Notes: generated by a model from the letters alone, not told the origin. A DNA stretch of 64,000 bases from an uncultured archaeon (GCA_964354805.1 CAYHBD010000008.1:29169-93168); one strand, 5' to 3'. Shown: positions 36,722-57,034, numbered from the stretch's first letter. Made by a program: numbers and translations.

Positions 36722-37405
36722 ATGGGAAGAGCGCAAAGAAAAGCGAAACTGGCAAAGCGCAGAACTAAGCCAATTATTGTAAATTTGGGAAACATTGGAT
36801 TTCCTGGAGAGCCTGCTGCAGCGGAAACGATAAGGCTTGCCAAAAGGGTGCCTGGCTTGAGAGTCATAGGCATAGACAGAAGGCGACTCCCAAGCATGGG
36901 TGCGCAGCCTGGGAAAAAAAATTGGCGGGACAAAAAAATGCCCCATGGATATTATGGCCGCCGGATAAAGAACTGGCAACAGGTTCAGGCTGACTTTAGA
37001 AGAGGGCTTGAACAATTGAGGGATAACTCTGTTTCACATATAACTTCAAAGCTTGGGTTAGGGCACTACACTGCTGCTGCAAAGGAACTGAAAAAAGCCG
37101 AGTTGTACGAGGTTTCCCCCAATATTTTCCTTCAAAGACAAAAATATTATGAAAGGCTAAAACCTTTCGTGAAAAAGCACACTGCGGAAGTGCTGCAAAT
37201 CGCTTACAGAAAACTTAAGAGCGGCGGAAGAGTAAAGTTGGTTGTGGGCGAGCCTGTGCTGGAAACTGTGAAAGCTGCTTTAGCCGAAACCCCTTTCAAT
37301 CAAGAAAAAATTGAGATAAGGAAAATGCCCTCAAAAAGATATGTTGGAACTATTGAGATGAGGCAGTACGAGTACCCAATGTATAGAGTGACAATTCAAA
37401 AATAG
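36722..37405 (+). CDS. Divergent class I methyltransferase-fold protein with basic N-terminal leader
   Basis: IVNLG, VIGID, ADF...LRDNSVSHI, AYRKLKSGGRV. Confidence 0.55.
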   Translation: MGRAQRKAKLAKRRTKPIIVNLGNIGFPGEPAAAETIRLAKRVPGLRVIGIDRRRLPSMGAQPGKKNWRDKKMPHGYYGRRIKNWQQVQADFRRGLEQLRDNSVSHITSKLGLGHYTAAAKELKKAELYEVSPNIFLQRQKYYERLKPFVKKHTAEVLQIAYRKLKSGGRVKLVVGEPVLETVKAALAETPFNQEKIEIRKMPSKRYVGTIEMRQYEYPMYRVTIQK

Positions 37406-37415
37406 CTGCTTTATT

Positions 37416-37470
37416 GCATTTTGCGCTCGGCTTTTTTATTGAACAGGATACTGCCAAAAACTGGTGCCAT
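37416..37470 (-). pseudogene. Copy of the first 18 codons of the DUF296-like gene
   Basis: 52/55 identical to 36534-36588 (MAPVFGSILFNKKAERKMQ*). Confidence 0.88.
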
Positions 37471-37512
37471 GAATAATTTTCACGCCATAAAAATTTAAAA
37501 AACCATTGCAGC

Positions 37513-37620
37513 CACAGCGCTCAAGTAGCGAAAACAAAAAATGAATATTCTGATGCTTGGCATTGTGGGCACAACGCCAAGCAATGAAACAAAACAAATA
37601 TTCTTTAGCTTGGCATTGGG
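37513..37620. repeat. Two tandem copies of palindromic repeat family B
   Basis: 37570-37620 is near-identical (inverted) to 13179-13231; 37513-37567 is a degenerate copy. Confidence 0.75.
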
Positions 37621-37721
37621 GGAAAAGAAAAAATTGAAATTTGATTTATCGCAATAAGTCAGGCAACGCAAAAAAAGTTTAATAAACAGTAACAGACACA
37701 ATTTAATTGAAGGGGCAAAAT

Positions 37722-38393
37722 ATGAAAAGACCGCCGAAAAAAAGAACACCAGCCTGGGCAAAAAAGCCGGAAGGAGAGAGATTAAAGGGCAGTGACTGGG
37801 CTCTTTGGGAGAGGGCGGAAAGGCTGCGGCTGCTTAAAAGAGCAAGGAGCACAACGGGCGTTGGCCCTGTTCGCGGCATGGAAAGGAACCTTAGCGATTA
37901 CAGCCTGCTGTTTGGAGTGAGGTTTAAGGCATTGATTGGAACAAAAGCCACCTTCCTGCAAGGGCGGCCAAAACCAAGAAATGTTGCAGTGCTTGGATTG
38001 GGGGAAGGGCATGGAACTGCAATGAGGGAAATAAAAAGAGCATTCGGCGAAAGGGTTTTTGTGTGCACATTGGATGTTGCAAGAAGAATAAGCAAAAGAG
38101 ACGTGGATGAACCCAGGGTTGGGGACTTTGAGACATTCCCAAACGGGCGCTTTGGCAGAAAATTTGACTTCATTTTCTCGGTTTTCGGACCAACATACTA
38201 CAGCCAGAGACCGCTTTACTTAATTGAGAAAGCCACTGCATTGCTTGAAAAGGACGGGCGCTTTTTCTTCCAAGTCGACAAAATCAATGTGCCTTATGAG
38301 AGTGATGTAATAAAGATTGCTGAAAGAACAGGCTGCACTTACAGGCACGCAGAAACAGGGGACTACTATACATTCGAATTCAAGAAAAAATAG
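37722..38393 (+). CDS. Class I SAM methyltransferase-like protein with basic N-terminal leader
   Basis: VLGLGEGHG, TLDV, GDFE, KFDFIFS, LLEKDGRFFF. Confidence 0.7.
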   Translation: MKRPPKKRTPAWAKKPEGERLKGSDWALWERAERLRLLKRARSTTGVGPVRGMERNLSDYSLLFGVRFKALIGTKATFLQGRPKPRNVAVLGLGEGHGTAMREIKRAFGERVFVCTLDVARRISKRDVDEPRVGDFETFPNGRFGRKFDFIFSVFGPTYYSQRPLYLIEKATALLEKDGRFFFQVDKINVPYESDVIKIAERTGCTYRHAETGDYYTFEFKKK

Positions 38394-38394
38394 C

Positions 38395-39099
38395 TTACTT
38401 TTTGATTACATCCTTCCTTAGCGGCTTTCTCCCGCAGGTTTCCCTTTCAGGGCAGTAACCCAGGCGCTCGCAGATTGGACCGCTGTTTTCAAACAATAGG
38501 GGCGCAGCCTGCTTGCATAACCTGAACATTTCCTCTGCCAATGCCCTTATTTCCCACTGGGCTCTTGCACACAAGCGCCTTTCGAAAAAATTGTAAAGAG
38601 AGCGCGTGTTCATTGTCACAATAATGCGGGTTTCGCATGCATTGGGCAGAACAAACCTGGCATCCTCTGCAGGCGCTGTTTTCAGCAATTCATTGTATGC
38701 TCTCTTGCTTTGCTCTATTGATTCATTGAAAACTTTCATCGCTTCCTTGTTCCCCTTTATTATCGGCGGGATAATGAAGTTGAAGCCTGTTTCCTTTACA
38801 TAGCGTTGCGATTGCTGCGAAAAACTCGCGATTCTGTGTCTTACAAGCTGGTGGGAGCAGGCCCTGGAAATTCCCTCTATTGCAAAAGTGAAGGAAGAAT
38901 GCTCCAAGGGGGAGAGATGGCCTTCCTCAGTAAGCCTTTTGAGCAGCTTTTTAGCGTAATCAGGGCCTACCTTCTTTTTCAGTTCATCAATAGTAATGCC
39001 TGCATAGCACAAGTGGGCTGCCGTCGCAGGCAGCAGGTCAGGCTGCGGTGTTACAGCAATCAATTCAACCTTAAGCTTTGCCTCAGCCAACAAAAACAC
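38395..39099 (-). CDS. thyX: FAD-dependent thymidylate synthase
   Basis: GHLSPLEH, HQLVRHRIASFSQQSQRY, EDARFVLP, AQWEIR. Confidence 0.96.
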   Translation of the reverse strand: MFLLAEAKLKVELIAVTPQPDLLPATAAHLCYAGITIDELKKKVGPDYAKKLLKRLTEEGHLSPLEHSSFTFAIEGISRACSHQLVRHRIASFSQQSQRYVKETGFNFIIPPIIKGNKEAMKVFNESIEQSKRAYNELLKTAPAEDARFVLPNACETRIIVTMNTRSLYNFFERRLCARAQWEIRALAEEMFRLCKQAAPLLFENSGPICERLGYCPERETCGRKPLRKDVIKK

Positions 39100-39155
39100 C
39101 CAATAAAAAGTGGCGGAATTTAATTAAATAACCTTTCTTTGCTTCCCTTTTTACC

Positions 39156-39752
39156 ATGCCAGAGATAAAAGCAGTAATTTTTGACGCAGGCGGAGTGATT
39201 CAGAAAGGAACGGCAAGGCACTATTATGCAGCAGTCTGGAAAAGGTTGTGTTTCAATCCAGCAATCAAAAAAGCAGGCAGGATTCCGCTCTACAAGCAAA
39301 TGAATTCGGGAAAAATCAGCCCAAAGGAAATGCTTGAAAAAATCTACCCAAAAGCAAGCAAAAAACAAAAGAGGGAAATTTTGCTGCTTTGGAAAAAAGC
39401 ATGGCCAACAGACAAAGCAATGGTTGCATTAGTGAAAAAGCTGCGGAAGCAATACATTGTTTCAATGATTTCAAACAGCGACCCAATCCACGAGAAAAGA
39501 GTGCGAAAAGAGGGCGTCCTGCAATTGTTCAAAAAGCCATTGCTAAGCCACAAGGTTGGCCTCATAAAGCCGGATAAAAAAATTTTCGTTCTCGCGCTGA
39601 AAAGGCTTGGCTTGAAAGCGCCTGAATGCGTTTTCATTGATGACACAAAAAGAAACACGGCGGCTGCAAAAAAGCTCGGATTCAAAGCGATTCATTTCAA
39701 GAACAGGTGGCAATGCGAAAGGGAATTAAAAAGCTTGGGCATTAAATTCTAA
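39156..39752 (+). CDS. HAD family phosphatase
   Basis: VIFDAGGV, ISNS, KPDKKIF, FIDD. Confidence 0.88.
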   Translation: MPEIKAVIFDAGGVIQKGTARHYYAAVWKRLCFNPAIKKAGRIPLYKQMNSGKISPKEMLEKIYPKASKKQKREILLLWKKAWPTDKAMVALVKKLRKQYIVSMISNSDPIHEKRVRKEGVLQLFKKPLLSHKVGLIKPDKKIFVLALKRLGLKAPECVFIDDTKRNTAAAKKLGFKAIHFKNRWQCERELKSLGIKF

Positions 39753-39756
39753 TTGA

Positions 39757-40398
39757 ATGCAAACAAAATTAATGAAAGAAATAGAGAAGATTGCAAGAAC
39801 CTATTTCCCAAGGCAAGGACACCACGGGTTTGACCACACGCTCAGAGTGCGCAGGCTTGCAATGCAAATAGGCAAAGCTGAAGGGGCAGATTTGCAGATA
39901 GTTGAGGCAGCAGCCTTGCTGCACGACATAGCAAGGGAGAAAGAGGACAAGGGAGAAATAGGATGCCATGCAGCGCACGGCTCGGCAGAGGCAGCAAAAA
40001 TTCTCGCAGAATGCGGCTTTCCAAAAGAAAAAATTCAGGCAGTACAGCACTGCATTGCAGTCCACAGGGCAAGCAAGCACTTGAAAGCTGAAACAATTGA
40101 AGCAAAAATACTGCAGGATGCCGACAGGCTGGATGTAATCGGAGCAATAGGGGTTGCAAGGGTTTTCCACAGGAGCGGCGCAATGGGCAGAGAAATGTAT
40201 AATCCAACAGGAAACCCAAACACAGAATACTGGGGCCAACACGAAGCAGCGATAAACAACCTGATTAGGAAAAGCATCAATCTCCTCAAGCCAGAGAACT
40301 TCAATACAAAAACAGCGCAGAGAATTGCAAAAGGAAGGCATGGCTTCCTGAAAGAATTCGTTGAAAGGTTCATTGCGGAATGGAACGGTGAAAAATGA
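39757..40398 (+). CDS. HD domain phosphohydrolase
   Basis: HGFDHTLRV, ALLHDI, QDADRLDVIGAIG. Confidence 0.92.
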   Translation: MQTKLMKEIEKIARTYFPRQGHHGFDHTLRVRRLAMQIGKAEGADLQIVEAAALLHDIAREKEDKGEIGCHAAHGSAEAAKILAECGFPKEKIQAVQHCIAVHRASKHLKAETIEAKILQDADRLDVIGAIGVARVFHRSGAMGREMYNPTGNPNTEYWGQHEAAINNLIRKSINLLKPENFNTKTAQRIAKGRHGFLKEFVERFIAEWNGEK

Positions 40399-41040
40399 AT
40401 GCACGCAAGAATTCCGCCGCCGCGATACAAAAACCTGCCGAGACATGGGAAATATGCAGGCACACCAATGAGGCTGGACCCGGCTGAAAGGAAAATGATT
40501 GGGGTAACCGGCCCTATAAGAAAATATGTTGACAGATTCCAGGCAGAAAGCCAGCTGCAGAGGGCGAGGAAAATTGTTGCAAACATAAAAAAATTCAAAA
40601 AGGTCAGGCTGCATTTGGTTCAAGCAAAACGCTTGTGGGCGAAAAGAAGCGCAACCGACATCATAACATCGAGGAAAGTTTATGTTGTTGCCCCAACCGA
40701 AACAATCGACGCAAAGATGCCAGTGCTGAGGGGCTGCACTGACCTGGCGGTGGCAGTAACAGCTGCCTTGAGGGCAATCGGCTTGAAGGCATGGATTGCA
40801 AGAATGGGCGCGCACACTTACACAAAGTTTGTTTACAGAAAGAAGGTTTTCATCGCGGACGCATATGAGCTAAAAAGGGTAGGCCCAAGAAGGGCGCGCA
40901 AAAGGCACTCTGTGAGAAGAATGGGCAGGCCTGACAGGATCATTGAAAACAGTCACAGGACGGACAAATCTTTTGCTGAAGGGAAAAGCCTTGCGGAGAT
41001 TGGAATAAAATCATTCAATGATTTCTGCAAATATTACTGA
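40399..41040 (+). CDS. Transglutaminase-like (Cys-His-Asp) protein with basic leader
   Basis: GCTDLAVAVTAALRAIGLKA...AHTY...FIAD. Confidence 0.6.
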   Translation: MHARIPPPRYKNLPRHGKYAGTPMRLDPAERKMIGVTGPIRKYVDRFQAESQLQRARKIVANIKKFKKVRLHLVQAKRLWAKRSATDIITSRKVYVVAPTETIDAKMPVLRGCTDLAVAVTAALRAIGLKAWIARMGAHTYTKFVYRKKVFIADAYELKRVGPRRARKRHSVRRMGRPDRIIENSHRTDKSFAEGKSLAEIGIKSFNDFCKYY

Positions 41041-41067
41041 GTTAGAGAGCGGAATGGTGAGCAACGC

Positions 41068-41595
41068 ATGCGCAAAGCAGCAGCAGAACCAATAGTAAAG
41101 CCAAGGCAGACACTGCGGGATGTTTTTAGGAGGGACGCGTTCAGCAGGAGCAAGAGAAAGGGGCTTACCGGAAAGAAAACATTTGAGAGAAAGGTTGATG
41201 CAATGATTGCCCAGATTGAAAAGCATTCAGCACAGAACCCGCTTCGAATTGGAAGGCAGAGGGGCCCGATAAAAACAGAACAACAGGCGCTTGCAATAAG
41301 GGACATTATCCAGGCTGCACTCTTTAGAAGAAAACTGCTGCGCAAACCAAGGGCAGCAGCAATGCTCGCCGAAAGAATGAAAAGCACAAAATACGCCGCA
41401 TACTTTGCACGCATTGCCAAAGAAGCGGCAAAAAGAGCGGAGAGAAAAAAGATGAAAAAAATAATTGCAGCAAAAAAACCAAGGGGGCCGGAGCAAGAAA
41501 AACAAACCAAAATAATTGCAGCAATCGCTGCAAGAAGACGGGGCATCATGGAAGCGGGCAGGCAGTGGGCTGCGAAAGGGAAAAAACAATATTGA
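41068..41595 (+). CDS. Very basic helical hypothetical protein
   Basis: GGTGA RBS, 175-aa K/R/A-rich ORF. Confidence 0.6.
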   Translation: MRKAAAEPIVKPRQTLRDVFRRDAFSRSKRKGLTGKKTFERKVDAMIAQIEKHSAQNPLRIGRQRGPIKTEQQALAIRDIIQAALFRRKLLRKPRAAAMLAERMKSTKYAAYFARIAKEAAKRAERKKMKKIIAAKKPRGPEQEKQTKIIAAIAARRRGIMEAGRQWAAKGKKQY

Positions 41596-41740
41596 CGAAT
41601 TTCACTGAAAGAACGAAAATAGGGTAAACGAATTTCACCCAATTTGATTGGTTTAAAAAGGCAGTTCCTTTTTTGCGTTGGCCTCAATTGCAACCAAGAA
41701 CCAGATTGTATTTTAATCAATTAAAGCAATATTTTAAATC

Positions 41741-42616
41741 ATGAGCTTAAGGAAAATGCCGGAAAAAGGAGGCAGGGCAGAGAAAGCCTATTGGAGAAGG
41801 GCAAGAGCTGATTTCAAGAGGCGCTTTCCGGAAGCAGCACTGCAAAGAGACACGGTTGAAAAAATAGCCAAGCAATTAATTCCCTTGCTGAACCAGTGGA
41901 AAAAAGCGAAGAAAAATGCGGCAAATTCTTGGCAACAGCTTGAAAACTACCTGCTGAACACCCCGCCCGAAAAAACCAACCAAAAGCGATTTAAGAGGCT
42001 TCTGGATAGCGCGCAAATGCGAAGTATTCGGGCGATTGGAAACGAGCAGAGCTTTTTTGAAGCAAGGGAAACCCTGAAGCGCTATCTCATGGGCATAACC
42101 GATTTCGAAGCACAGCAAACAACAGCAGCATTAGAATACGGCAAATTCAGCATTGTGGTTGAAAAAGAGTTTTACGGAAACATCAGAAGGTTGGCTGATA
42201 CAAGGCTTTTGAAGGCGTTTGCAGATCGGATAGCAAGAATGAACATATCGAAAGATGTGAGATACAATGTCCTCAGGCAAAACGTTTCAGACCTGCTGAA
42301 AGCATCTGAATACACAAACAGGGGTATTAATGAATATTTGGGCAACCTAAGATACGCGTATGATTTTGGGCACATAAAACGGGAAAGATATTATGTAAAT
42401 CTCCTTATGAGCGAGATTACAATTACACAACACGCGGGCAACATTGCGGAAGCAGAGGAAAGCCTGTACAGCTACCTGCGCAGGTATGCAAAAAATGCGC
42501 GGTTGAGCCTCTTCCTTGCCACGCTTGCAAGGGAAAGAAAAGCGGAAAGAGGGCATTTCGCAAAAAAAGAAAAAAACTTGATAGCCGAGATTTCAAAATT
42601 CAAAGGGGCCTATTAA
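41741..42616 (+). CDS. Basic helical hypothetical protein
   Basis: 291-aa ORF with an AT-rich upstream region. Confidence 0.7.
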   Translation: MSLRKMPEKGGRAEKAYWRRARADFKRRFPEAALQRDTVEKIAKQLIPLLNQWKKAKKNAANSWQQLENYLLNTPPEKTNQKRFKRLLDSAQMRSIRAIGNEQSFFEARETLKRYLMGITDFEAQQTTAALEYGKFSIVVEKEFYGNIRRLADTRLLKAFADRIARMNISKDVRYNVLRQNVSDLLKASEYTNRGINEYLGNLRYAYDFGHIKRERYYVNLLMSEITITQHAGNIAEAEESLYSYLRRYAKNARLSLFLATLARERKAERGHFAKKEKNLIAEISKFKGAY

Positions 42617-42648
42617 ACGAATTTCGTCCAATTTGGTTAGTTTTTAAA
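42617..42648 (+). promoter_or_regulatory. Putative lysC promoter: palindrome plus TATA-like box
   Basis: ACGAA-T-TTCGT (42617-42627), then TTTTTAAA (42641-42648) about 25 bp before the ATG. Confidence 0.45.
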
Positions 42649-42672
42649 TCATTTCCGCACCATAGGTTCTGA

Positions 42673-44046
42673 ATGCTTACTGTAATGAAGTTCGGCGGAA
42701 GCATTCTGTGCAAGGAAAGCGAATTGCACACTTTGGCTGATGTTGTGAAAAAGCGTGCCAAAAAGGAAAAAATTGTTATTGTTGCATCCGCGCTAAAGGG
42801 GATAACTGATTCTCTCATTAATGCAGCAGGCGCATGCCTTGAGAGCAGCGATGGCATTGAAAGTGCTATTGCAGCAATCAGGGAAAAGCATTTTGAAATA
42901 ATTAAAGGAATCAAAGACAGCAAAATAAGGGAAAATGTGGAGAAAACACTGCTCAAAAAGCTTACTCTGCTTGAAAGGGCATTGTACGGAATCTCCTATC
43001 TGAAAGAGTTGTCGCCGCGCTCGCTTGACCTGGTGCAGACGCTTGGGGAAAGGCTGAGCGTGCTGCTGTTGGAAGCTTATCTGCAGGATAATGGAATAGG
43101 CGCGGTTGCGCTTGATGATGCCTGCATTGTAACAAACAGCAGTTTTGGACAAGGGCTGCCGATGATGCAGGAAACAAAAGAAGAGCTTGGAAAAAGAGTA
43201 GGAGAAATTCTGCAGAAAAGCGTTGTTATTTTGCCGGGCTTTTTTGGAACGGATAAAAAGGGGAACATTGTGAGCTTTGGAAGGGGCGGCAGCGATTTCT
43301 CGGCTGCAATTATTGCTGCAGCGCTTGAAGCAGATGCGCTTGAGCTTTGGAAGGATGTGGACGGCTTTTTGAGTGCCGACCCGAAGATTGTAAACGGCGC
43401 AAGGCTTTTGTCTAACCTGAGCTATGACGAGGCGGAAGAGCTTGGTTATTTCGGAGCAAAAATAATGTACCCAAAAACAGTCCTGCCCCTGCGGGAAAAG
43501 GGCATTCCGATAATTGTGAAAAACATTCTGGCGCCGGAAAAAATCGGCACTGTTGTTAGCAAGGAAAAACACAGGCATGAAACAATAATCAAGTCAATCG
43601 CTGTCAAAAGAAGCATTGCCTGCGTTACACTAAGAAGCCCGGCTTTTGTTGGGCAGGCAGGCGTATTGCACAAGATTTTTTCGGCAATGGCAAACGCCTG
43701 CGTTAACGTTGACCTTGTTACAACAAGCGAAACAGGGGTTTCTTTCACAATAGATGAAAGCGATTTGCAGGCAGCGAAAGAAGCTGTTCCCTCAATAGAT
43801 TTGGTTTTGGAAGAGATAAACTTTGACCGAGATGTTGCAATGGTTGGCGTTGTTGGAGAAGGCCTCAAGAGAACGCCGGGAGTGGCGGCAAAAATATTCA
43901 ACTGCCTGGGAAAACACGGCATAAACGCTGAAATGATTAGCTCGGGGAGCAGCGAAATAAGCCTTTCATTCATAATAAGGGAAAGCGATTTGGAAAAAAC
44001 AGTGAAAGTGCTGCACGATGAATTAAGGGGGCATGACCTGAAATGA
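42673..44046 (+). CDS. lysC: Aspartate kinase
   Basis: VMKFGGS, GRGGSDFSA, WKDVDG..SADP, two ACT domains. Confidence 0.95.
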   Translation: MLTVMKFGGSILCKESELHTLADVVKKRAKKEKIVIVASALKGITDSLINAAGACLESSDGIESAIAAIREKHFEIIKGIKDSKIRENVEKTLLKKLTLLERALYGISYLKELSPRSLDLVQTLGERLSVLLLEAYLQDNGIGAVALDDACIVTNSSFGQGLPMMQETKEELGKRVGEILQKSVVILPGFFGTDKKGNIVSFGRGGSDFSAAIIAAALEADALELWKDVDGFLSADPKIVNGARLLSNLSYDEAEELGYFGAKIMYPKTVLPLREKGIPIIVKNILAPEKIGTVVSKEKHRHETIIKSIAVKRSIACVTLRSPAFVGQAGVLHKIFSAMANACVNVDLVTTSETGVSFTIDESDLQAAKEAVPSIDLVLEEINFDRDVAMVGVVGEGLKRTPGVAAKIFNCLGKHGINAEMISSGSSEISLSFIIRESDLEKTVKVLHDELRGHDLK

Positions 44047-44092
44047 AAAACACAAAAGTCGGCATCCTTGGAAATGCCGAGGGGGCAACAGC

Positions 44093-45145
44093 ATGAAAAA
44101 GATAAAGGTTGGCGTTCTTGGGGCAACAGGCATGGTTGGGCAGCGCTTTGTGCAGCTGCTTGAGCAGCATCCCTGGTTTGAGGTAAGCGAGGTTGCGGCA
44201 AGCGAGAGAAGCGCCGGAAAAAGCTATTCTGATGCGCTTGAAGGCAGATGGAAGCAGCCCGTGCCAGTGCCGGAAAGAGTTGCAGGCATGACAGTAAAGG
44301 AATGCAAGCCAGGATTGGATTGCGAGCTTGTTTTTGGAGCATTGGACAGCAACGTTGCAGGGCCGATTGAAGAGGATTTTGCAAAAGCAGGGTATGCAGT
44401 TAGCAGCAACAGCAAAAACCACAGAATGGATGCAGATGTTCCACTGCTGATTCCGGAAATAAATTCCGAACACATTGCGCTAATTGATTTGCAGAGAAAG
44501 CACTGGGGCGGAAAGGGATTCATTGTAACAAACCCGAACTGCACTCTCACAGGGCCTACAATGGCAATGAAAGCATTGGATGATGCTTTCGGCATTGAAA
44601 AAGCAATGATTGTTTCAATGCAGGCAATAAGCGGGGCAGGCTATCCCGGGGTTGCCTCATGGGACATTGTGGATAACATACTTCCATTCATTTCAGGGGA
44701 AGAGGAAAAAGTGGAAACAGAGCCACTGAAAATTCTGGGAAAATTTAAGGGAGACAAGATTGAGTTTGCCCCAATTAAAATAAGCGCTGCTTGCAACAGG
44801 GTTGCGGTAAGGGACGGCCATACCTGCTGTGTTTCGGTTCAATTGCGGAAGAAAGCAGGCATTGAGGAAGCAATTGGCGCAATGCAGCAATTCAGGGGAG
44901 AACCGCAAGCGCTTAAATTGCCGAGCGCTCCAGCACAGCCGATCGTTGTAAGAAAAGAGCAGGACAGGCCACAGCCATTGCTTGACAGGGAAGAAGGAAA
45001 AGGGATGAGCGCTGTTGTAGGCAGGGTTAGGCATTGCAATGTTTTTGACCTGAAATTCACTGTTTTAAGCCACAACACGATCAGGGGAGCAGCAGGCTGC
45101 GCAATACTGAATGCGGAACTATTAAAAGCAAAAAAGTACATCTAG
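44093..45145 (+). CDS. asd: Aspartate-semialdehyde dehydrogenase (archaeal/fungal type)
   Basis: VLGATGMVGQ, TNPNCT, QAISGAG, SHNTIRGAAG. Confidence 0.96.
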   Translation: MKKIKVGVLGATGMVGQRFVQLLEQHPWFEVSEVAASERSAGKSYSDALEGRWKQPVPVPERVAGMTVKECKPGLDCELVFGALDSNVAGPIEEDFAKAGYAVSSNSKNHRMDADVPLLIPEINSEHIALIDLQRKHWGGKGFIVTNPNCTLTGPTMAMKALDDAFGIEKAMIVSMQAISGAGYPGVASWDIVDNILPFISGEEEKVETEPLKILGKFKGDKIEFAPIKISAACNRVAVRDGHTCCVSVQLRKKAGIEEAIGAMQQFRGEPQALKLPSAPAQPIVVRKEQDRPQPLLDREEGKGMSAVVGRVRHCNVFDLKFTVLSHNTIRGAAGCAILNAELLKAKKYI

Positions 45146-45157
45146 CTTTTTGGAATT

Positions 45158-45361: not shown

Positions 45362-45461
45362 AATATATTAACTTCTTAGCATCATCAATTAAATTTTACT
45401 TTAAGCCCCTTATTTGCCAAATTGGTTATCTTAAAAAGGATTTAACTATCTAATTTTGATT

Positions 45462-46208: not shown

Positions 46209-46237
46209 AAGAAATTGGGGAATTAATCCATTAAAAA

Positions 46238-47817: not shown

Positions 47818-47878
47818 CCGAGTTTTAATTGTCGGGTTTTTATATTTCTTTTTGCATAATAAGTTATTGGTGTGAATT

Positions 47879-48034: not shown

Positions 48035-48081
48035 AAATATATTTAAATAATAGTTGTATATACTTATATAAGTGGTGTTTT

Positions 48082-48696: not shown

Positions 48697-48723
48697 GCCA
48701 TACTTTTTTTAAAATAAGAAAAG

Positions 48724-49629
48724 GTGAATCGCATCTCTTCCAAGCTGGCAAATGGCAAACGCATTGCAGTCATCGGCTCTGGCCCAGCCGGAATGCATGC
48801 AGCGCTGCTGCTTGCACAAGAGGGCTTTGCCGTTGAATTGTTTGAAAAAGAGAAGCAGCTTGGGGGCATGCTGCGCTACTGCATTCCGAAATTCAGGTTT
48901 GGCAGGCAGGGCATAGACCAAAAGATCGAGAAATTGAGGGAGCTTGGGGTAAAAATCCATGCCGGGAAAGCTGTTGGAAACAAGCTGCCGCTGCAGGAAA
49001 TTGTGGAAAGATTTGATGCTGTTTTGCTTGCGTGCGGGGAGCAGAAGGAAAAAAGGCTTGCGCTGCAGGGAGAGGGGTTAAGGGGGGTAATTTATTGGGG
49101 TGTTTTTCTGAGGGAGTACAATGAGGGCAGGGCAAAGAAATTGGACGGAAAACAGGCTATTATTTTGGGCGGCGGAGACACTGCAATTGACTGCGCAAGG
49201 GTTGCAAAAAGGCTTGGCGCAGAAGCGGTTATTGCTTACAGGAGAAGCAGGGAGGGAATGCCTGCCGAAAAGCGCGAAATTGAGGCAGCGGAAAAAGAGG
49301 GGGTGCAATTTCACTTCCATTTAAGCCTGGTGAAATTCAAGGGAGAGAAAAGGCTGGAAGCCATTGTTTTTGAAAAAACAGCGGGAGAGGGCAGGGAGAT
49401 GCGCTCCACAGGGGAATTTGCAGAGGAAAAAGCAGATATTGCCATAATTGCTGCAGGGCAGGAGCCGGATTTGAGCTTTTTGCAGGGCAGCAAATGGAAA
49501 AGCCTGCAGGAATTGCCTGAAAAAATAGTGCTTGCAGGGGACATTGCAAACAGGGAAAAACGCATCGCGGCAGCAATTCAATCGGCTGCTGCAGCAGTTG
49601 AAAAAATAAAGAAAATAGCGGTTAATTAA
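48724..49629 (+). CDS. FAD/NAD(P)-dependent oxidoreductase (GltD/NfnB core without the Fe-S domain)
   Basis: IAVIGSGPAG, GGMLRYCIP, ILGGGDTAIDCAR, YRRS...MPA, AGDI. Confidence 0.85.
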   Translation: MNRISSKLANGKRIAVIGSGPAGMHAALLLAQEGFAVELFEKEKQLGGMLRYCIPKFRFGRQGIDQKIEKLRELGVKIHAGKAVGNKLPLQEIVERFDAVLLACGEQKEKRLALQGEGLRGVIYWGVFLREYNEGRAKKLDGKQAIILGGGDTAIDCARVAKRLGAEAVIAYRRSREGMPAEKREIEAAEKEGVQFHFHLSLVKFKGEKRLEAIVFEKTAGEGREMRSTGEFAEEKADIAIIAAGQEPDLSFLQGSKWKSLQELPEKIVLAGDIANREKRIAAAIQSAAAAVEKIKKIAVN

Positions 49630-49855
49630 GTCAATTGACGAACTTCGGTTTGACAAAAACCATAACCTTTTTATTTGGCTGGGAAGACTATAATTTAATC
49701 GGGGGCAAAATTTCTTTTGAATTTTTACTTAAATTGGCATTTAAAATGCAGTGAAATTTACTAAAACCAAAAATTGCATTTAACAAAAAGGGTGAAAATT
49801 TGCCGAACACCAAAATTTCACACAAGAAGGCTTAATTTGAACAGGAGTGAGGAAA

Positions 49856-51154
49856 TTGCCGAGCAGCGAATTGCACGGGTTTTACAAGAAAAGCCAGCAG
49901 GAAAGGCTTGCAATAGTAAAGGAATTCGCCTCCCTGAGCGAGGAAGACATTGCATTGCTGCAGCGCAGCGGGGCAATGGGCTTTGAGATAGCTGACAGGA
50001 CAAGCGAAAACGTTATTGGCACGCAGCAGCTGCCGCTTGGCATTGCAACAAACTTCACCATTAATGGAAAAGATTATTTGGTGCCAATGAGCATTGAAGA
50101 GCCAAGCGTTGTAGCAGCAGCAAGCAAAATAGCAGGGCTGGCAAGGCAAACAGGGGGCTTTAAAGCCGAAACAGACGAGCCAATAATGATTGGGCAAATT
50201 CAATTAGTAAAAGTAAAAAATTTTGAAAAAGCGAAAAAGGAAATTCTGAAAAAAAAGCGGGAATTGATTGAAAAAGCAAATGCCTTTGACCCAGTGCTTG
50301 TAAAATTCGGCGGGGGGGCAAAAGGCCTTGAAATAAGGGGCATTAAAACCAAAAGAGGGCAAATGCTCATAGTGCACTTGCTTGTGGATGTAAGAGATGC
50401 AATGGGGGCAAATGCAGTGAACGGAATGGTTGAAGTAATAGCGCCGGAAATCGCGGCACTTGCAGGCGGAGAACAAAGGCTGTTTATTATATCAAATCTG
50501 GCGATTCACAGAAAAGCAAGGGCAAAAATGGTTATTACGCCAAAAGCGCTTGAAGAGAGCTTTGCAGGAAAAGGGATTGATTTGAAGGGAGAGGAAATAA
50601 TTGAAAGAATACTTGATGTTTACGAACTGGCTGCATGCGACCAGTTCAGGGCAACCACGCACAACAAGGGAATAATGAACGCAATTGACTCAATTGCAAT
50701 AGCAACAGGCCAGGACTGGAGGGCGCTTGAGAGCGGAGCGCACAGCTTTGCAGCATTCGGAAGAAAATATGGCCCGCTCACAAAATACTATAAGGACAAA
50801 GAAGGAAATTTAGTGGGAGAGATAGAATTGCCGCTTGCTGTTGGCCTGGTTGGAGGGGCAGTGAAAACAAGCCCTGTTGCGCAGGTTGCATTGAAAATCC
50901 TTGGAGTGAAAACAGCACAGGAACTTGCAATGGTTATGGCATCAGCCGCATTAGCAGAGAACTTGGGCAGCCTGCGGGAGATTGCAGCAAGGGGCATCAG
51001 GCACGGGCACATGGAACTGCACGCAAAAAACATTGCAGTCATTGCAGGGGCAAAAGGAAAAGAAATTGACGCGGTTGCACTACAAATCAGTAGGGAAGGA
51101 AAAATAACCGTGGACAGGGCAAAGGAGATTCTTGCAGAGATTAGGGGGCACTAA
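49856..51154 (+). CDS. hmgA: HMG-CoA reductase, class II
   Basis: [33 protein letters not shown]; TTG start after GGAGTGA (alternative GTG at 49847). Confidence 0.95.
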
Positions 51155-51155
51155 G

Positions 51156-52226
51156 ATGGCAGTAAACAAAAACTTTGTCGGCATAGTTGGCTACGGGGTT
51201 TACGTGCCACGCTACAGGATAACGCTTGAGGAAATCGCCAAAACCTGGAGAAAGGACGGCAAGGCAATAAGCGATTCATTGGGCGTAAAGGAAAAGGCTG
51301 TTGCTGGCTTTGACGAAGACAGCTGCACAATTGCTGTTGAAGCGGCAAGAAAGGCAATAAAGCAATGGGGCAACGACTCGCAAAAAATAGGCGCTGTTTA
51401 CGTTGGCTCGGAATCGCATCCTTACGCTGTAAAGCCGACTGCATCAATTGTTGCAGATGCAATAGATACAGGCCCTGAATTAACAGCAGCTGATCTGCAA
51501 TTTGCATGCAAGGCAGGCACAGCAGGAATGCAAATTTGCATGGGCCTTGTTTTGAGCGAAGTGCCTGACTGGATTGATTATGGCCTGGCAATTGGCGCTG
51601 ACACTGCACAAGGCAGGCCAGGCGATGCATTGGAATACACTGCAGCAAGCGGCGGAGCTGCATTCATTATCGGAAAGAACCCAAAAGAAGTGATTGCATC
51701 AATTGACGAAACATTCTCCTATACAACTGACACGCCTGACTTTTGGAGAAGGCAGCACGCGGAATTCCCAAGGCACGGCGGCAGATTTACCGGGGAACCG
51801 GCTTACTTTAAGCACGTAATAAATGCTGCGGAAGGCATTATGGCAAAGGCAAAAATGAAGGCAACAGACTTTGATTACGCGGTTTTCCACCAGCCGAACG
51901 GAAAATTCCCCGAGAGGGCAGCCAAAATGCTGGGCTTTGAGCGGGAAAAAATAAAACAGGGAATGCTCACTCCATTGATCGGAAACACTTACTCTGGCAG
52001 CACAATGATCGGCCTGGCATCAATCCTCGACATTGCAAAGCCGGGAGAAAAAATCCTTGCAGTAAGCTTTGGCTCAGGAGCGGGAAGCGACGCATTTACA
52101 ATAACAGTGCAGGAACCGATTGAAAAAAAGAGGCAGAAAATCCCGGTACTTGAAATGATTAAGGAAAAAGAATACATCAGCTATGCGGAATACGCAAAAT
52201 TCAGGAGAAAGCTGAAGACACTGTGA
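51156..52226 (+). CDS. HMG-CoA synthase, archaeal type
   Basis: [40 protein letters not shown]. Confidence 0.95.
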
Positions 52227-52231
52227 TTGGC

Positions 52232-52522
52232 ATGGTAAGAACCCCAAAATGGAAGAAAAAACGCCCACCGTGGTTTTCAACATATGGAAAAGGCGGGGGA
52301 AGGTATGGGAAAAAAACATTTAAACAGGAAACAAAAATAGCGGACTTTGAATTGCATAAAAAAATAATTGACAATAATCCTGCATTAAAAAGTTTTTATT
52401 TGCAAAAATTGGTAGAGGTTAACGCATCCGGAGAAAAGGGAATTAGCGCACAGGAGACTGCTGTTGCATTAACCAAACAATTTGCGGATGAGAAAAAAAT
52501 CTCTTGGAGGCTTCAAAAATGA
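52232..52522 (+). CDS. Small hypothetical protein with basic leader, inserted between HMGS and thiolase
   Basis: MVRTPKWKKKRPPWF; stop overlaps the thiolase ATG. Confidence 0.6.
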   Translation: MVRTPKWKKKRPPWFSTYGKGGGRYGKKTFKQETKIADFELHKKIIDNNPALKSFYLQKLVEVNASGEKGISAQETAVALTKQFADEKKISWRLQK

Positions 52523-53682
52523 GAAGCGTTTCAATAATCGGCTATGGTTGTACACAATTCGGCGAACACTGGGAAAAAAGCTTCAGGGAACTGATTGCTG
52601 AAGCCGGAACAATGGCAGTGCAGAACGCAGGCCTTACCGGAAAAGACATTCAGGCAATCTACGGCGGGTGCATGGCTTCAGGCAGGTTCATTGGGCAGGA
52701 GCACATTGGCGCCCTGATTGCAGACCAGCTTGGCCTGAACCCGATTCCGGCAACAAGGGTTGAGGCTGCATGCGCTTCAGGCGGGGTTGCATTAAGGAAC
52801 GCTTTCCTTGCGGTTGCATCAGAAGCTTACGATGTTGTTGCAGTTGGAGGCATTGAAAAAATGACTGAAATCAGTGTAAGCGAAGCAGCGATTGCATTGG
52901 GCGGGGCAGGCGACCAGGAAACAGAACTGTTCCACGGAGCAAGCTTCCCGGCGCTGTACGCTTTGATGGCAAGAAGGCACATGCACGAATTCGGAACAAC
53001 AGAAGAGCAGATGGCAATGTGCAGTGTTCAAGCACATAAAAATGGAATGCACAATCCAAATTCACAGTTCCACAAAGAAATAACTATTGAAGAGGTAATG
53101 GAATCAGGGTATGTTGCTTCGCCATTAAAATTGCTTGACTGCAGTCCGATAACTGATGGGGCAGCTGCATTAATTTTGTGCTCAACAGAGAAAGCGAAAA
53201 AAATGGGGTTCAGCAATGCAATTGAAATCATTGGTAGTGCACAGGCATCGGACAGCCTTGCATTAACAGGCAGAAAGAGCTTAACTGAAATGACTGCAAC
53301 AAAAGTGGCGGCCAGGGATGCTTATGCCCAAACAGGCTTAAAGCCAAGCGACATTGATTTTGCCGAAGTACACGATTGCTTCTCAATAGCAAACATAATG
53401 GCAATTGAAGATTTGGGTTTCTTCAAAAAGGGTGAAGGGGGAAAGGCAGTTGAAGCAGGCAAAACAGCACTTAACAGTGAAATCAGTGTGAATCCAAGCG
53501 GTGGCTTAAAGTGTGGACACCCAGTTGGAGCAACAGGAATAAAACAAGCAGTTGAAATAGTTGAACAATTGCTTGGAAAGGGTGGTAAAAGGCAAGTGCA
53601 CGATGCAAAAATTGGTTTGGCACACAACGTTGGCGGAAGCGGCGCAACGGCAGTAGTGCACATCTTTAAGGTGGTTCAATAA
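52519..53682 (+). CDS. Acetyl-CoA acetyltransferase (archaeal thiolase)
   Basis: EAACASG, DCSPITDGAAA, EVHDCF, GHPVGATG, HNVGG. Confidence 0.95.
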   Translation: MRSVSIIGYGCTQFGEHWEKSFRELIAEAGTMAVQNAGLTGKDIQAIYGGCMASGRFIGQEHIGALIADQLGLNPIPATRVEAACASGGVALRNAFLAVASEAYDVVAVGGIEKMTEISVSEAAIALGGAGDQETELFHGASFPALYALMARRHMHEFGTTEEQMAMCSVQAHKNGMHNPNSQFHKEITIEEVMESGYVASPLKLLDCSPITDGAAALILCSTEKAKKMGFSNAIEIIGSAQASDSLALTGRKSLTEMTATKVAARDAYAQTGLKPSDIDFAEVHDCFSIANIMAIEDLGFFKKGEGGKAVEAGKTALNSEISVNPSGGLKCGHPVGATGIKQAVEIVEQLLGKGGKRQVHDAKIGLAHNVGGSGATAVVHIFKVVQ

Positions 53683-54086
53683 TGAGCAATGGAGCGCTTC
53701 CATTAATCTGGAGAAAGTTCCCGGAAAGGTATCTGCTCAGGGGCAACAAATGCACAAACTGCGGAACAGCATTCTTTCCGGCAAGGAAAATGTGCCCAAA
53801 CTGCAGGAGAAAAGGAAAGTTGGTTGAAGAGGACATGCCGAAAGAGGGGGAAATAATTACCTTCACCGAAGTGTTCACAGCCCCGGCTGGCTTTGAGATT
53901 GAAACACCATACTTCATTGCAATAATTGAATTAACAAACGGCGCAAAAGTGCTCTCGCAAATAGTTGATTCACCGCGGGAAAAGGTCAGGATTGGATCAA
54001 AAGTGCAAAATGTTTTCAGAAAAATCTCAGACATCGACCCAGAAGGGCCGATTGCATACGGATACAAGTTCAAAGTTGTTGGATAA
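53682..54086 (+). CDS. DUF35 Zn-ribbon/OB-fold thiolase-HMGS scaffold
   Basis: CTNCG..FFPAR.MCPNC, IAYGYKF. Confidence 0.93.
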   Translation: MSNGALPLIWRKFPERYLLRGNKCTNCGTAFFPARKMCPNCRRKGKLVEEDMPKEGEIITFTEVFTAPAGFEIETPYFIAIIELTNGAKVLSQIVDSPREKVRIGSKVQNVFRKISDIDPEGPIAYGYKFKVVG

Positions 54087-54153
54087 GAAAGAACAAATGC
54101 CAAGAGCATACGGGTATAAATTCAAGTGAGGGAATAATTTTTATTGATGCAAA

Positions 54154-54786
54154 ATGCCTGAGATAAAGCACACAGGGTTACGCAGAATAGTTGGGAGAAC
54201 TTTGCGGGCATACGGCGGGCTTAAAACAGAACACACTGTGACAAGGGCTGTTGTTTCTGATTACCTGCTTGAAAAGCTGTTGTTCAAGGACCCAAATTTG
54301 CCCCCTGGAAAGCTTGGGCAGGCAAAAAGGCTTGCAGAGCACAGCGCGCGAATAAGCGAAGCAATTTCTTCCGCTCAAACCAAACAGCAAATTCCGGCAA
54401 AGAATGCAACAAAAATACTGCAAATAACCATGAACGAAATGCCAAAATATTTGGAAAGAAACAAAGAAAAATTAGGAAAAGAGGGAACTGCACAGTTTGC
54501 TGCCATTCAAAAAAAACTTATGGACAAGTTAATAAAAGTCGAGGATTTACCCGATGAACAGGCGGTTGAGCTTTCACTGCCCTTCCTTAAAATCGCGAAC
54601 ACTGTCCACCTTGACGCAATGCGTAGCCTGCTCGGAGAAAAAAAAATTCAGGCTATACACAAGGGCAATTGTGGGGGCAATGAAAACAGTAATGGAGAGG
54701 AAAAAGAAATGAAAACAGGGGGGGCAATATCTGCGATGGCAGAAGGGCTGATTGCATATTGTTATAAATTCAAAATTGTGGAATAA
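54154..54786 (+). CDS. Hypothetical protein with basic leader; probable +1 frameshift in an A9 run
   Basis: Current frame runs into a DUF35 3' echo; an A8 reading gives GEKKFRLYTRAIVGAMKTVMERKKK*. Confidence 0.6.
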   Translation: MPEIKHTGLRRIVGRTLRAYGGLKTEHTVTRAVVSDYLLEKLLFKDPNLPPGKLGQAKRLAEHSARISEAISSAQTKQQIPAKNATKILQITMNEMPKYLERNKEKLGKEGTAQFAAIQKKLMDKLIKVEDLPDEQAVELSLPFLKIANTVHLDAMRSLLGEKKIQAIHKGNCGGNENSNGEEKEMKTGGAISAMAEGLIAYCYKFKIVE

Positions 54787-54802
54787 ATTTAGGTGGTGAA
54801 AG

Positions 54803-56140
54803 ATGCCGAAACCGCTTACTGTTAGAAAACGCGTTTTTTCTGCAATGGGCTTGGGAAAAGGCCCGCTTGCGGTAGAAACAAGGCATGACATCCAAAGATA
54901 CTTTGAGCCATATGCTGGCAGGCGATATCCAACCGGCAGGTCAAGCGATGCTTCCAGGGTTCCGATTGAATTTGGTGCAAGGCAATGGGGGCACGCTGAA
55001 TTTCTGCGGAATGCTTTGAAAAGCCCCGGGCTTGCAAGGGAAATTGCAAGAGACCCTATTGCAAGGGTTGAATTCGAAAAATCTCTGTTTGACGCAATCC
55101 AGGAAAGGGCGCTCAAGGCTTACTCGGAAGAATGGCGCAACCTGAGCCCCAAAGCGATTTCCGCGCTAATAGGCAGGGCAAAGGCAACCGGAACCAAGCC
55201 AACGCCGCAAATCGCAAACGAATACAATGCAGGCATGGTTGCAAGGGAAGCAATGTCAGGGCTGGGCAAAGGGAAAAACCTCACAATTGTTGACCTGGGT
55301 TGCGGTGGCGGCGGCACAATAGTTCCAATAATTGAGTCAATTCCAAAAGAGTTCAGGCACAGAATCAGGGTTGTTTTGGTTGATGTGATGCAAAAAGGGC
55401 TGGATAGCAGCAGGAAAAAACTTTTGAGGCGCGGGCTGAATGGAAAGGGGCAGATCATTCCCATAAAAGAAAACATTTCCAAGCTAATGCACAACAACAA
55501 GGTTGCACATCTTTTTGGAACCGCAGACATTGTGACAACTGGAGCTGCGTTGCACCATGTTGCGGCAATAGAGCCGACTTTTGAGGGAGTAAAAAGGCTT
55601 CTGAAAAAGAATGGCGCGTTTATTTTCTGGGACTGGGGGCACGCTGCATGGAGAGCACCGAGGCTGGTAATTGCACCAGAGGGGGCAAGAGTGGACAAAT
55701 TCGGGAGATTCTATGAAAAAGGGCTGCGGACAGTTGAAGCAGAAAAAAGAACTGCCTTTGTTTCAAGAAGTGGAATCAGCGGGGTCTCAAAAGGCTGGGT
55801 TCCGACAGAGCACCAAACAGCAAGGGAAATGCTTTCAACATGGGTTTCACTGCTGAATTTTCCGGCTGAAAGAAAAGCGGAATTTTTGCAGTGGTTTGAC
55901 AGAAAGGCAGCAAGGGGCGAACCGATAGAGTTTGCCGAATACCTGAAAAGGCTTGAAGGCAGAAGGCTGGAGAAAGGCAAGCCCCACGCGGAAATAAAAT
56001 ACTGGGAAGGCCACAGGCCCCCGGAACTATACCACGACGCAATGAGGGCAGTCGGCTTAATTGGCGAAGGAGAAAGGCCATTTACAATCTATTCAACGCA
56101 AAACCCTTTGTTATACCAAATGAAGCTGAGAAAAAGGTGA
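54803..56140 (+). CDS. Class I SAM methyltransferase with long basic N-terminal region
   Basis: IVDLGCGGG, VLVDV, ADIV..AALHHV, RLLKKNGAFIFWD. Confidence 0.8.
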   Translation: MPKPLTVRKRVFSAMGLGKGPLAVETRHDIQRYFEPYAGRRYPTGRSSDASRVPIEFGARQWGHAEFLRNALKSPGLAREIARDPIARVEFEKSLFDAIQERALKAYSEEWRNLSPKAISALIGRAKATGTKPTPQIANEYNAGMVAREAMSGLGKGKNLTIVDLGCGGGGTIVPIIESIPKEFRHRIRVVLVDVMQKGLDSSRKKLLRRGLNGKGQIIPIKENISKLMHNNKVAHLFGTADIVTTGAALHHVAAIEPTFEGVKRLLKKNGAFIFWDWGHAAWRAPRLVIAPEGARVDKFGRFYEKGLRTVEAEKRTAFVSRSGISGVSKGWVPTEHQTAREMLSTWVSLLNFPAERKAEFLQWFDRKAARGEPIEFAEYLKRLEGRRLEKGKPHAEIKYWEGHRPPELYHDAMRAVGLIGEGERPFTIYSTQNPLLYQMKLRKR

Positions 56141-56149
56141 GGTGAAATT

Positions 56150-57034
56150 ATGTTAAAACAAACAAAAAAGCCGATAAAATATTCTGCAAGAAAAAGATGG
56201 CCTGGAAGGGCAAAAATAATGGGCAGATATATGCGAGTTGTTTTCAGGCAGTTTGAAAAAAGCGGCGAAATTAGCTCTGCACACAATATTGGGCACGTGC
56301 AAAGGGTAAGCATGTACGCGACAAAATATGCTGAATTTATGGGCGCAAAACCGGCAATACAGCAGCAAACAAGGATTGCAGGAATTAGCCACGACAGAAT
56401 AAGAGACAAGACAGAGCAATACAGCCACGAGGAAACCAGCGGAAGATTCATGGGGGAAAAGTTTGCGAAACGCTATGGAAAACGCCCTACAAAAAGAATG
56501 ACTGACGCAATAGTAAAACACGGCGGACTGCCAGAGCTGAACAGGGTTGGAAAAAACATTGCAAGGGACGCGGTTGTTTTTGCAGACAAATTCTTTGAAG
56601 CGAACGGAGCATATATTGCTTTCAGGCGCGCAATGTTCATGGGTGAAAGGGTTGACAGAAGAAAAGAAATGCAGGAGAAACACTTAACGCCAGAACAAGC
56701 TGCGGTTGATTTCACGGTTGATGAGAGCATTAAGAGGATAAAAGCGTTCTCAGACCTGAGCAAAATACCAAAACACTTGTACCCCTTTGTGGAATACCAA
56801 GTGACTTGGCAAAAAAGATTGCTTGAGGGGCTGCAAAAAAGAGAACCTGGAATTGTAAATCTCGCGCAGACATTGTTCAAAGAAGGGCTAAAAGCAAAGC
56901 CGAAACCATTGGATGAAGCAATAAAATCATACAGACCAATCACAAAAGAAGATGCAGCATTCAAAGCAGAAACAATGCGATATTTTAATGGAGAATTATG
57001 GGAAATTTTCAAGCAATTGGTTAAAAAGCCATGA
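56150..57034 (+). CDS. HD domain protein with basic leader
   Basis: AHNIGHVQRV, ISHD, HEE, ADKF.EANGA. Confidence 0.75.
   Translation: MLKQTKKPIKYSARKRWPGRAKIMGRYMRVVFRQFEKSGEISSAHNIGHVQRVSMYATKYAEFMGAKPAIQQQTRIAGISHDRIRDKTEQYSHEETSGRFMGEKFAKRYGKRPTKRMTDAIVKHGGLPELNRVGKNIARDAVVFADKFFEANGAYIAFRRAMFMGERVDRRKEMQEKHLTPEQAAVDFTVDESIKRIKAFSDLSKIPKHLYPFVEYQVTWQKRLLEGLQKREPGIVNLAQTLFKEGLKAKPKPLDEAIKSYRPITKEDAAFKAETMRYFNGELWEIFKQLVKKP

Follow-up and report, generated by a model that had tools for sequence, protein, structure and literature searches.

Introduction

A Sec signal consists of a basic n-region, a hydrophobic h-region (7-15 residues) and, in its c-region, a cleavage site, and a Tat signal carries S/T-R-R-x-F-L-K followed by an h-region. 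Here, we analyze nine open reading frames (ORFs) located between positions 36722 and 57034 of a 64,000-nucleotide stretch of DNA from an uncultured archaeon (the window; C8:29169-93168 in the assembly), each of which begins with a run of basic residues. An earlier inspection of the window (referred to below as the sequence-only reading) had taken the nine for inserted, rapidly exchanged genes united by an N-terminal targeting signal, possibly one for export to a host. The nine share a positively charged N-terminus with the n-regions of Sec, Tat and class III (pilin) signals; they differ from them in having no h-region, no twin-arginine consensus with an h-region and no cleavage motif.

Likenesses are also found among other groups of proteins. 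N-terminal extensions with basic motifs of the nuclear localization signal type have been described on archaeal ribosomal proteins (bioRxiv 10.1101/671966; see also PMC4490412). Those arms and the ones considered here are alike in being short, Lys/Arg-rich, acid-poor and without a hydrophobic core; the latter, however, stand on enzymes and uncharacterised proteins, vary in length and are Pro-rich, and a contact with RNA is suggested for them by analogy. Eukaryotic lysyl-tRNA synthetase has an appended, disordered, basic N-terminal domain for interaction with tRNA (PMC6213541), a lineage-specific polycationic addition to a conserved catalytic body that is absent elsewhere, comparable to the long and short forms of the HD protein described below. 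The link of the synthetase to its substrate is known, whereas the nearest folds of one of our proteins, 54803, act on small molecules. The unstructured polybasic N-terminus of PTEN-L binds membranes (PMC4700475) and illustrates how such a tail can bring an enzyme closer to a substrate embedded in the membrane. By analogy, the methyltransferase and the HD protein of the isoprenoid operon could plausibly have a tail that works in this way, with the difference that PTEN-L is a eukaryotic lipid phosphatase. The literature was searched for basic arms in DPANN archaea, and no paper on them was found.

Results

Basic N-terminal arms are translated and conserved in character

The assembly comprises 1.38 Mb in 49 contigs, with a GC content of 44%. 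Database names attached to close homologues ('Candidatus Diapherotrites archaeon', 'Micrarchaeota archaeon') are consistent with Iainarchaeota, a DPANN lineage. Most proteins have an isoelectric point (pI) of 8-10, and Lys and Arg make up 8.6% and 4.5% of residues, respectively; the source is a small Iainarchaeota archaeon with a very basic proteome. Alternative genetic codes were ruled out, long ORFs under the standard code covering 90%. About 1270 complete genes were predicted with a simple codon-score caller under a longest-ORF rule, and the N-terminal charge of each product was expressed as n25, the net charge over residues 2-26. Homologues of the nine ORFs were sought in the whole genomes of 60 relatives (22 genomes for the family) and then in further protein searches. 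The whole-genome searches returned homologues for seven of the nine. No paralogue of any of them was found in the genome itself, and the nine are therefore not a single expanded family. Structure was modelled directly (AF2) for two proteins, 54803 and 40399; genes are named throughout by the window position of their first nucleotide (Table 1).

All nine ORFs were present, with N-terminal strings exactly as the sequence-only reading had quoted them, and eight look like real genes, the exception being 52232. Their n25 values ranged from +4 to +10, which corresponds to the top 1-20% of the proteome, and their whole-protein pI from 9.4 to 11.6. At the lower end, 41068, 54154 and 54803 reached only +4, a value attained by 20% of all proteins. 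The bodies behind the arms, which had been described as Arg-rich, were so in seven cases (8-13% Arg versus a proteome mean of 4.8%) and not in the other two. In eight of the genes, neither overall GC content nor GC at third codon positions (GC3) deviated from the genome mean by more than 1.5 standard deviations, and a foreign origin was ruled out for these eight on grounds of this native composition.

Sites resembling Shine-Dalgarno (SD) sequences, of the GGTGA/GGTGGTGA type, were located at positions -5 to -12 relative to the starts of five genes: GGTGA upstream of 40399 and of 41068, GGTGGTGA at -12 to -5 of 54803, GGTGAGGTGA upstream of 56150, and a site upstream of 37722. In the last case the most likely start is the ATG at 37722, which has GAAGGGG upstream of it, rather than the TTG at 37707. 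Arg was encoded mainly by AGR codons.

In six families, those of 54803, 40399, 36722, 56150, 41741 and 54154, the orthologues retained a basic N-terminus of variable length and sequence, followed by a conserved motif. The motifs were [KR][KR]xVFxAMG for 54803, PRHAKxFxxPxRLSPxGRKQVGVT for 40399, VVHLGNVG for 36722, LSARxRWPxRAxIIxRYMR for 56150, (K/R)YWxxE for 41741 and TGxRR..VG[KR]TLRxYGG for 54154. Over residues 2-21, Lys accounted for 12-26% in the six families versus 10% in the proteome, and Arg for 8-19% versus 5.4%; in five of the six, Pro amounted to 7.6-15.8% (versus 3.3%) and Asp plus Glu to 2.6-5% (versus 9.1%). A Met-Pro start was seen in 33-41% of the members of four families, compared to 8% of the proteome. 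No sequence motif shared among the arms was found. The arms are rich in Lys and Arg, poor in acidic residues, non-hydrophobic and poorly ordered (coil in the model of 40399), and they are kept in character, not in sequence; in these respects they match the ribosomal-protein-like basic arms of proteins that bind nucleic acids. The families themselves have a patchy distribution among the 60 relatives. Since the SD sites are correctly spaced and the basic character is kept in orthologues of six families, we judge the arms to be translated; that basic starts precede unrelated bodies, as the sequence-only reading had it, is borne out.

None of the nine had a hydrophobic h-region, also as previously noted: over the first 60 residues, the 19-residue Kyte-Doolittle mean peaked at values from -0.25 to 0.57, and transmembrane-like segments score at least 1.6 on the same scale. 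No Sec signal could therefore be recognized in any of them. Arg-Arg pairs are found in 36722 (KRRTKP) and 41741 (WRRARADF), without the Tat consensus or an h-region. Because the first 60 residues of every one of the nine are free of a hydrophobic segment, we regard the proteins as cytoplasmic in character.

Arms are the extreme of a proteome-wide trend

The leaders had been thought to stand apart from the proteome in composition, with bimodality suggested as the check. The distribution of n25 over the ~1270 proteins contradicted this. It was unimodal (bimodality coefficient 0.29) and right-skewed, with a mean of +1.5 and a standard deviation of 2.8; 7.6% of proteins reached +6. Ribosomal proteins uL2, eS4, uL15, uL18, eS8, eL34 and eS27a had N-terminal charges of +8 to +11, at least as high as those of the nine. 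Thirty-seven other proteins had an n25 of at least 8; they comprised 10 that are ribosomal or correspond to Pop5 (an RNase P protein) or RpoA'' (an RNA polymerase protein), 7 from other Pfam families, some of them with over-extended starts, and 20 without a Pfam family.

Across all proteins, the N-terminal 25 residues carried a charge of +1.5 versus +0.25 for interior windows of the same length, and Lys was enriched at positions 2-8. The shift was present in proteins with a pI below 10 (+1.1 versus +0.05) and in those with a pI of at least 10 (+4.2 versus +2.5), the excess being +1.7 in the latter and +1.1 in the former. Genes with lower coding scores were more basic (Spearman -0.19). Since leader charge is continuous with that of the proteome, the leaders do not form a discrete class; they mark the far end of a tendency toward basic N-termini that runs through the whole proteome. 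The possibility that a leader is a mere extension of body composition was dropped as the whole story, with a Spearman coefficient of 0.08 between body charge and N-terminal charge; the class with a pI of at least 10 nevertheless has the mean n25 of +4.2 given above. An ordinary HD protein (39757) and the gene at 1525 had no basic start, in agreement with the sequence-only reading. The span that holds the nine is the densest of the genome in basic starts, with an n25 of at least 4 in 13 of its 26 genes versus 20% genome-wide (binomial p 7e-4, uncorrected for the post hoc choice of the span).

The methyltransferase and HD protein of the mevalonate operon

For 54803 and 56150, the body assignments of the sequence-only reading, a methyltransferase and an HD protein, were upheld. 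The product of 54803 scored above cut-off for Methyltransf_12, _31, _11, _25 and Ubie_methyltran, and the S-adenosylmethionine (SAM) loop D164-L-G-C-G-G-G-G is invariant or nearly so in its family. Its nearest folds are NovO, CouO, Coq5 and UbiG, which are small-molecule C- and O-methyltransferases (Foldseek probability 1.0 to NovO, Coq5 and CouO). In the model, residues 4-14 are helical, and the first 60 residues belong to a conserved N-terminal region of helices, in which Y42, P43, P54, E56 and W62 are invariant. As modelled, the 'leader' of 54803 is a helix of this conserved N-terminal domain and not a detachable peptide.

The methyltransferase occurs between DUF35 and mvk in five relatives (G013, G059, G004, G006 and G022) and in public contigs, and homologues with only 30-48% identity are also located in mevalonate clusters. 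In this slot, two relatives of the same genus carry methyltransferases that are 73% (G013, L071:5786-7117) and 35% (G004, L072:4069-5409) identical to that of the window, and the genes flanking the slot are equally similar in the two (58-85%); it looks as if the slot occupant had been swapped by recombination. In another relative (G008, L076:7018-9198), a 726-aa acidic protein with a pI of 4.4 and a pilin-like N-terminus, MHEKKAQGSLEYLLIIGSGILI, is encoded between DUF35 and the methyltransferase, and a 55-aa very basic ORF lies between thiolase and DUF35.

In the alignment of the 56150 family, H45, H81-D82, H124 and D146 are invariant, in the H..HD..H..D metal-ligand pattern of HD-domain phosphohydrolases. 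PF01966 was matched by four of seven family members (best E 2.6e-10), the window protein itself giving no match, and it is carried by a short subfamily of ~255 aa. The 41 long-form proteins had a mean n25 of +7.2, versus +0.1 for the remaining 68, most of them of the short form, and the arm was kept in ~38 of the 41 down to ~45% identity. From this comparison, we conclude that one subfamily acquired the arm and has kept it since. Both forms occur in mevalonate operons, and the HD gene was found there in the arrangements UbiD-HD-AcnX, UbiX-HD-UbiD, mvk-HD-MDD and PMK-HD-IDI2. The family thus offers a clean natural comparison of proteins with and without an arm in the same operon context. The methyltransferase and HD genes together (window 54803-57034; L070, L071, L072 and L115-L120) are found both in genomes that encode the UbiX/UbiD/AcnX (Aeropyrum-type) route and in those with the PMK/MDD route. 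We searched the literature and found no paper on either protein in archaeal mevalonate clusters. Along with members of the 54154 family, they are uncharacterised members of mevalonate operons and are candidates for steps of isoprenoid synthesis or for its regulators.

Most carriers are residents of conserved operon slots

The nine had been described as insertions into conserved operons, several of them bracketed by echoes, and as rapidly exchanged cargo. Part of this description holds: several genes are flanked by repeats, and the families are patchy. On the other hand, most of the genes occupy the same slot in relatives. The 54154 family is located between DUF35 and mvk in G012, G005 and G030, and the 40399 and 41741 families are found near thyX, HAD, HD and aspartokinase genes in relatives. 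Rapid exchange is contradicted in the case of the methyltransferase, the HD protein and the 54154 family: all three are kept in the mevalonate operon across genera.

Bracketing echoes were confirmed for three genes, 36722, 41741 and 54154, as direct repeats of 35-91 nt. The left copy at 36722 holds the 5' end of a minus-strand gene (36199-36588), and the right copy is a truncated echo. The repeat at 41741 contains a palindrome, CCAATTTGATTGG, and its second copy overlaps the stop codon of the gene. At 54154, the 3' end of DUF35 is present in three copies (54040-54086, 54099-54125 and 54740-54786), of which the third encodes the end of 54154 (its final 15 codons plus stop) and is closer to the DUF35 end of a relative (KFKIVE) than to the one of its own genome. 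The echo is specific to the window genome, being absent from the orthologues in G012 and G005. Behavior expected of single-gene cassettes is mixed: repeats flank three genes and slot contents vary, but orthologues of 54154 and 41741 fill the corresponding slots of other genera, and GC content is native. Near 36722, 41741 and 54154, no recombinase was found. Spacers of the operon carry different small genes in different relatives, some of them basic. A rule whereby a slot-filler would have a basic leader failed, only two of six variable slot-fillers in relatives having a basic start. We conclude that most of the carriers hold stable positions in conserved operons, with real local turnover.

Possible upstream signals were also inspected. 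The sequence CACAATTTAATTG is found 21-23 nt upstream of the ATG codons of 36722 (36695-36713) and 37722 (37693-37711), and the palindrome mentioned above is ~100 nt upstream of 41741 (41635-41652). A core, CAATTTRATTG, precedes all three genes and occurs 17 times in the genome, versus ~4 times expected from base composition. It had no consistent link to basic-start genes genome-wide, and a shared upstream regulon motif was rejected.

Explanations for the basic arms

The explanation that we favour, with moderate confidence, is that the arms are polycationic N-terminal extensions on cytoplasmic, lineage-restricted, generally Arg-rich proteins of high pI, which would be tethered by them to a polyanion, and are not a common export or sorting signal. 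The unrelated bodies on which such arms arose independently are three Rossmann/methyltransferase-like proteins, one HD hydrolase, one transglutaminase-like protein and two families without a recognised fold, and the arms are a translated part of the mature reading frames. In most families the arm is a short, low-complexity segment of variable length ahead of a conserved motif, predicted to be disordered where modelled. It probably acts as an electrostatic tether to a polyanion, which could be RNA, DNA or the ribosome, by analogy with the equally basic arms of the organism's own ribosomal proteins; for the methyltransferase and the HD protein of the mevalonate operon, the tether might instead be to an anionic membrane surface. 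Targeting to nucleic acid, one of the options put forward by the sequence-only reading, stays live, without the shared signal or discrete class that it had supposed.

Several points weigh against this explanation. Longest-ORF calls inflate some N-terminal charges; for example, the AcnX swivel subunit, L24e and adenylosuccinate synthetase begin later than called. The related sequences in which conservation was observed are non-independent samples, and the polyanion tether is proposed by analogy. The fold neighbours of 54803 are small-molecule C-methyltransferases and not RNA or DNA enzymes, which fits better with a membrane or metabolite role than with nucleic-acid binding. Finally, the occurrence of arms in six unrelated families within a single lineage, with Met-Pro starts at 33-41% in four of them, could still reflect one shared function.

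The main rival is a neutral or translational origin, in which the arms would be low-complexity 5' expansions of fast-evolving accessory genes whose purine-rich, weakly structured codons aid initiation and whose peptide has no function. We consider this origin unlikely, while noting that the proteome-wide excess of N-terminal Lys, the same N-terminal shift in all pI classes, the use of AGR codons for Arg, the tendency of lower-scoring genes to be more basic and the freedom of arm length and sequence to vary among orthologues all agree with it. It does not account for the two- to five-fold enrichment of Pro, which is encoded by CCN codons, and the depletion of Asp and Glu in the arms, nor for conserved motifs directly after them, and the presence of the arm in nearly all long-form HD proteins but not in the short form, whose operon context is the same, also argues against it. 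A further alternative, that translation begins farther downstream and the basic segments belong to the untranslated 5' sequence or to spurious ORFs, is the least probable of those considered. It draws on the orphan 52232, with its low GC content and no good SD site, on the TTG at 37707, which is probably not used, on the public call that begins 41741 at Met6, and on the over-extension of several other genes; it is opposed by SD sites directly upstream of the annotated ATG codons in five genes, by the conservation of the basic segments as protein in six families and by motifs that span the junction of arm and body.

DPANN archaea are typically host-associated, and a Lys/Arg/Pro-rich start could in principle be a shared targeting signal that sends accessory proteins to a compartment or out of the cell and into a host, in the manner of cell-penetrating, polyarginine-like peptides or across cell-cell bridges. 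Apart from the host association itself, this would agree with the convergent arms and frequent Met-Pro starts of six unrelated, lineage-restricted families, with the top density of basic starts in the span, with the repeats around three genes and with the patchy distribution of the families. We nevertheless hold it to be very unlikely, in view of the unimodal charge distribution with ribosomal proteins at its extreme, the lack of a common sequence motif, the basic stretch of 54803 that belongs to the fold, the membership of the methyltransferase, HD and 54154 families in an essential biosynthetic operon, the mixed starts of other variable slot-fillers in relatives (two of six basic) and the absence of a secretion gene adjoining the carriers in the loci read. 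Export or an effector function has no support either: no link to secretion genes was found in these loci, the h-region is missing and the bodies have cytoplasmic-type enzyme folds. With the effector reading failing, the nine are a poor seed for searches for new secretion routes. There is likewise a slim chance that the arms are a lineage-wide Iainarchaeota Lys/Arg/Pro N-terminal code, gained convergently, with a common destination such as the host cell (by cell penetration or bridges), an RNA-rich condensate or a membrane site of lipid synthesis; if so, the code would add a new type of sorting signal to those described in archaea. Of practical use is that many lineage-restricted DPANN proteins bear conserved polycationic arms, which deserve to be retained in gene calling and taken into account in function prediction.

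Other ORFs and additional observations

Features of the window are listed in Table 1. The arm of 36722, which has an n25 of +8, is ~17 residues long and ends immediately before strand beta-1. Nine homologues in the order all have a Lys/Arg/Pro-rich start of 8-40 residues. The protein had no Pfam match, a PDB profile match with an E of 0.014, and weak methyltransferase leads only in an Atlas search. Relatives of 37722 show generic methyltransferase-domain similarity only, and these weak relatives are also basic at the start.

Table 1. Basic-start ORFs and flanking repeats of the window (window coordinates)
Feature	Position	Strand	Remarks
227-aa Rossmann/methyltransferase-like protein	36722..37405	+	family motifs VVHLGNVG, IGID, ISSE, KLKxGGK
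223-aa methyltransferase-like protein	37722..38393	+	Methyltransf_23 at E 0.012, below curated cut-off
213-aa transglutaminase-like protein (Cys113-His139-Asp154)	40399..41040	+	disordered K/R/P-rich arm, residues 1-27
175-aa K/R/A-rich protein, pI 11.6	41068..41595	+	basic along full length; GGTGA at -12
291-aa lineage-restricted protein, no recognised fold	41741..42616	+	K/R/P/G-rich arm before (E/K)(K/R)YW..E..F(R/K) motif
Doubtful 96-99-aa orphan ORF in HMG-CoA synthase/thiolase spacer	52232..52522	+	
210-aa protein, family without recognised fold	54154..54786	+	last 15 codons echo DUF35 3' end
445-aa class I SAM methyltransferase	54803..56140	+	Pfam above cut-off; 29 homologues; AF2 pLDDT 91
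294-aa HD-domain protein, long subfamily	56150..57034	+	~25-residue K/R/P arm; within mevalonate operon
91-nt direct repeat pair around 36722	36534..36624 and 37416-37506		81% identity, spacing 882 nt
35-nt direct repeat pair around 41741	41625..41659 and 42614-42648		83% identity, spacing 989 nt
47-nt repeat pair around 54154	54040-54086 and 54740-54786		81% identity, 700 nt apart

The transglutaminase-like assignment of 40399 comes from weak fold matches (E ~1e-3, TM 0.45), the best being to cysteine protease 3isr, a transglutaminase, LapG and PNGase; the protein had no Pfam match. In an alignment of 12 sequences, C113 and H139 were invariant, and D154 was present in most and replaced by Asn in two paralogues. 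The model had an overall pLDDT of 86, which fell to 46-63 for residues 1-20, and residues 1-27 were coil. The family was found in 10 of the 22 family genomes; a word-indexed protein search gave one relative, the others coming from the whole-genome searches. In several relatives (L051, L052 and L056; G021, G018 and G001) it is present as two or three tandem paralogues.

For 41068, weak partial matches were obtained in two to four family genomes, with no Pfam match. An internal 36-nt imperfect repeat (41438-41473 and 41489-41524, 75% identity) encodes a Lys/Ala/Ile-rich part of the protein. The public call of 41741 begins at Met6 (position 41756), and an AT-rich, TATA-like stretch is located upstream of the gene. 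About 17 cluster representatives of 41741 were retrieved from 1.8 billion proteins, nearly all of them basic at the start; an Atlas search with this protein gave no usable match.

The orphan 52232 has a GC content of 0.373 (z -2.4), a coding score of 10 and no good SD site; its ends overlap the adjoining genes as GTGA and ATGA, and no homologue was found in the 22 family genomes. It may not be a gene. The HMG-CoA synthase/thiolase spacer in which it lies is 9-37 nt long in four relatives, 290 nt in the window (52223-52522) and 420 nt in G059 (L070:7062-7480), and the two long spacers hold different, unrelated basic ORFs.

Searches of the window for tRNAs and for Rfam families returned none. 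For the AcnX swivel subunit (61024-61464), the longest ORF adds a very basic 15-residue start, MKNRIKRKKNKRGKL; there is a Met at position 16, and the Pfam domain begins at residue 41. The true start is probably downstream, in which case the gene exemplifies how longest-ORF calling makes false basic leaders. Outside the window, four non-Pfam proteins with an N-terminal charge of at least +8 are encoded within 15 kb of the 29-kb contig C33 (663-1331, 9549-9884, 12846-13415 and 14224-14928), a cluster that may be a mobile element or a virus remnant.

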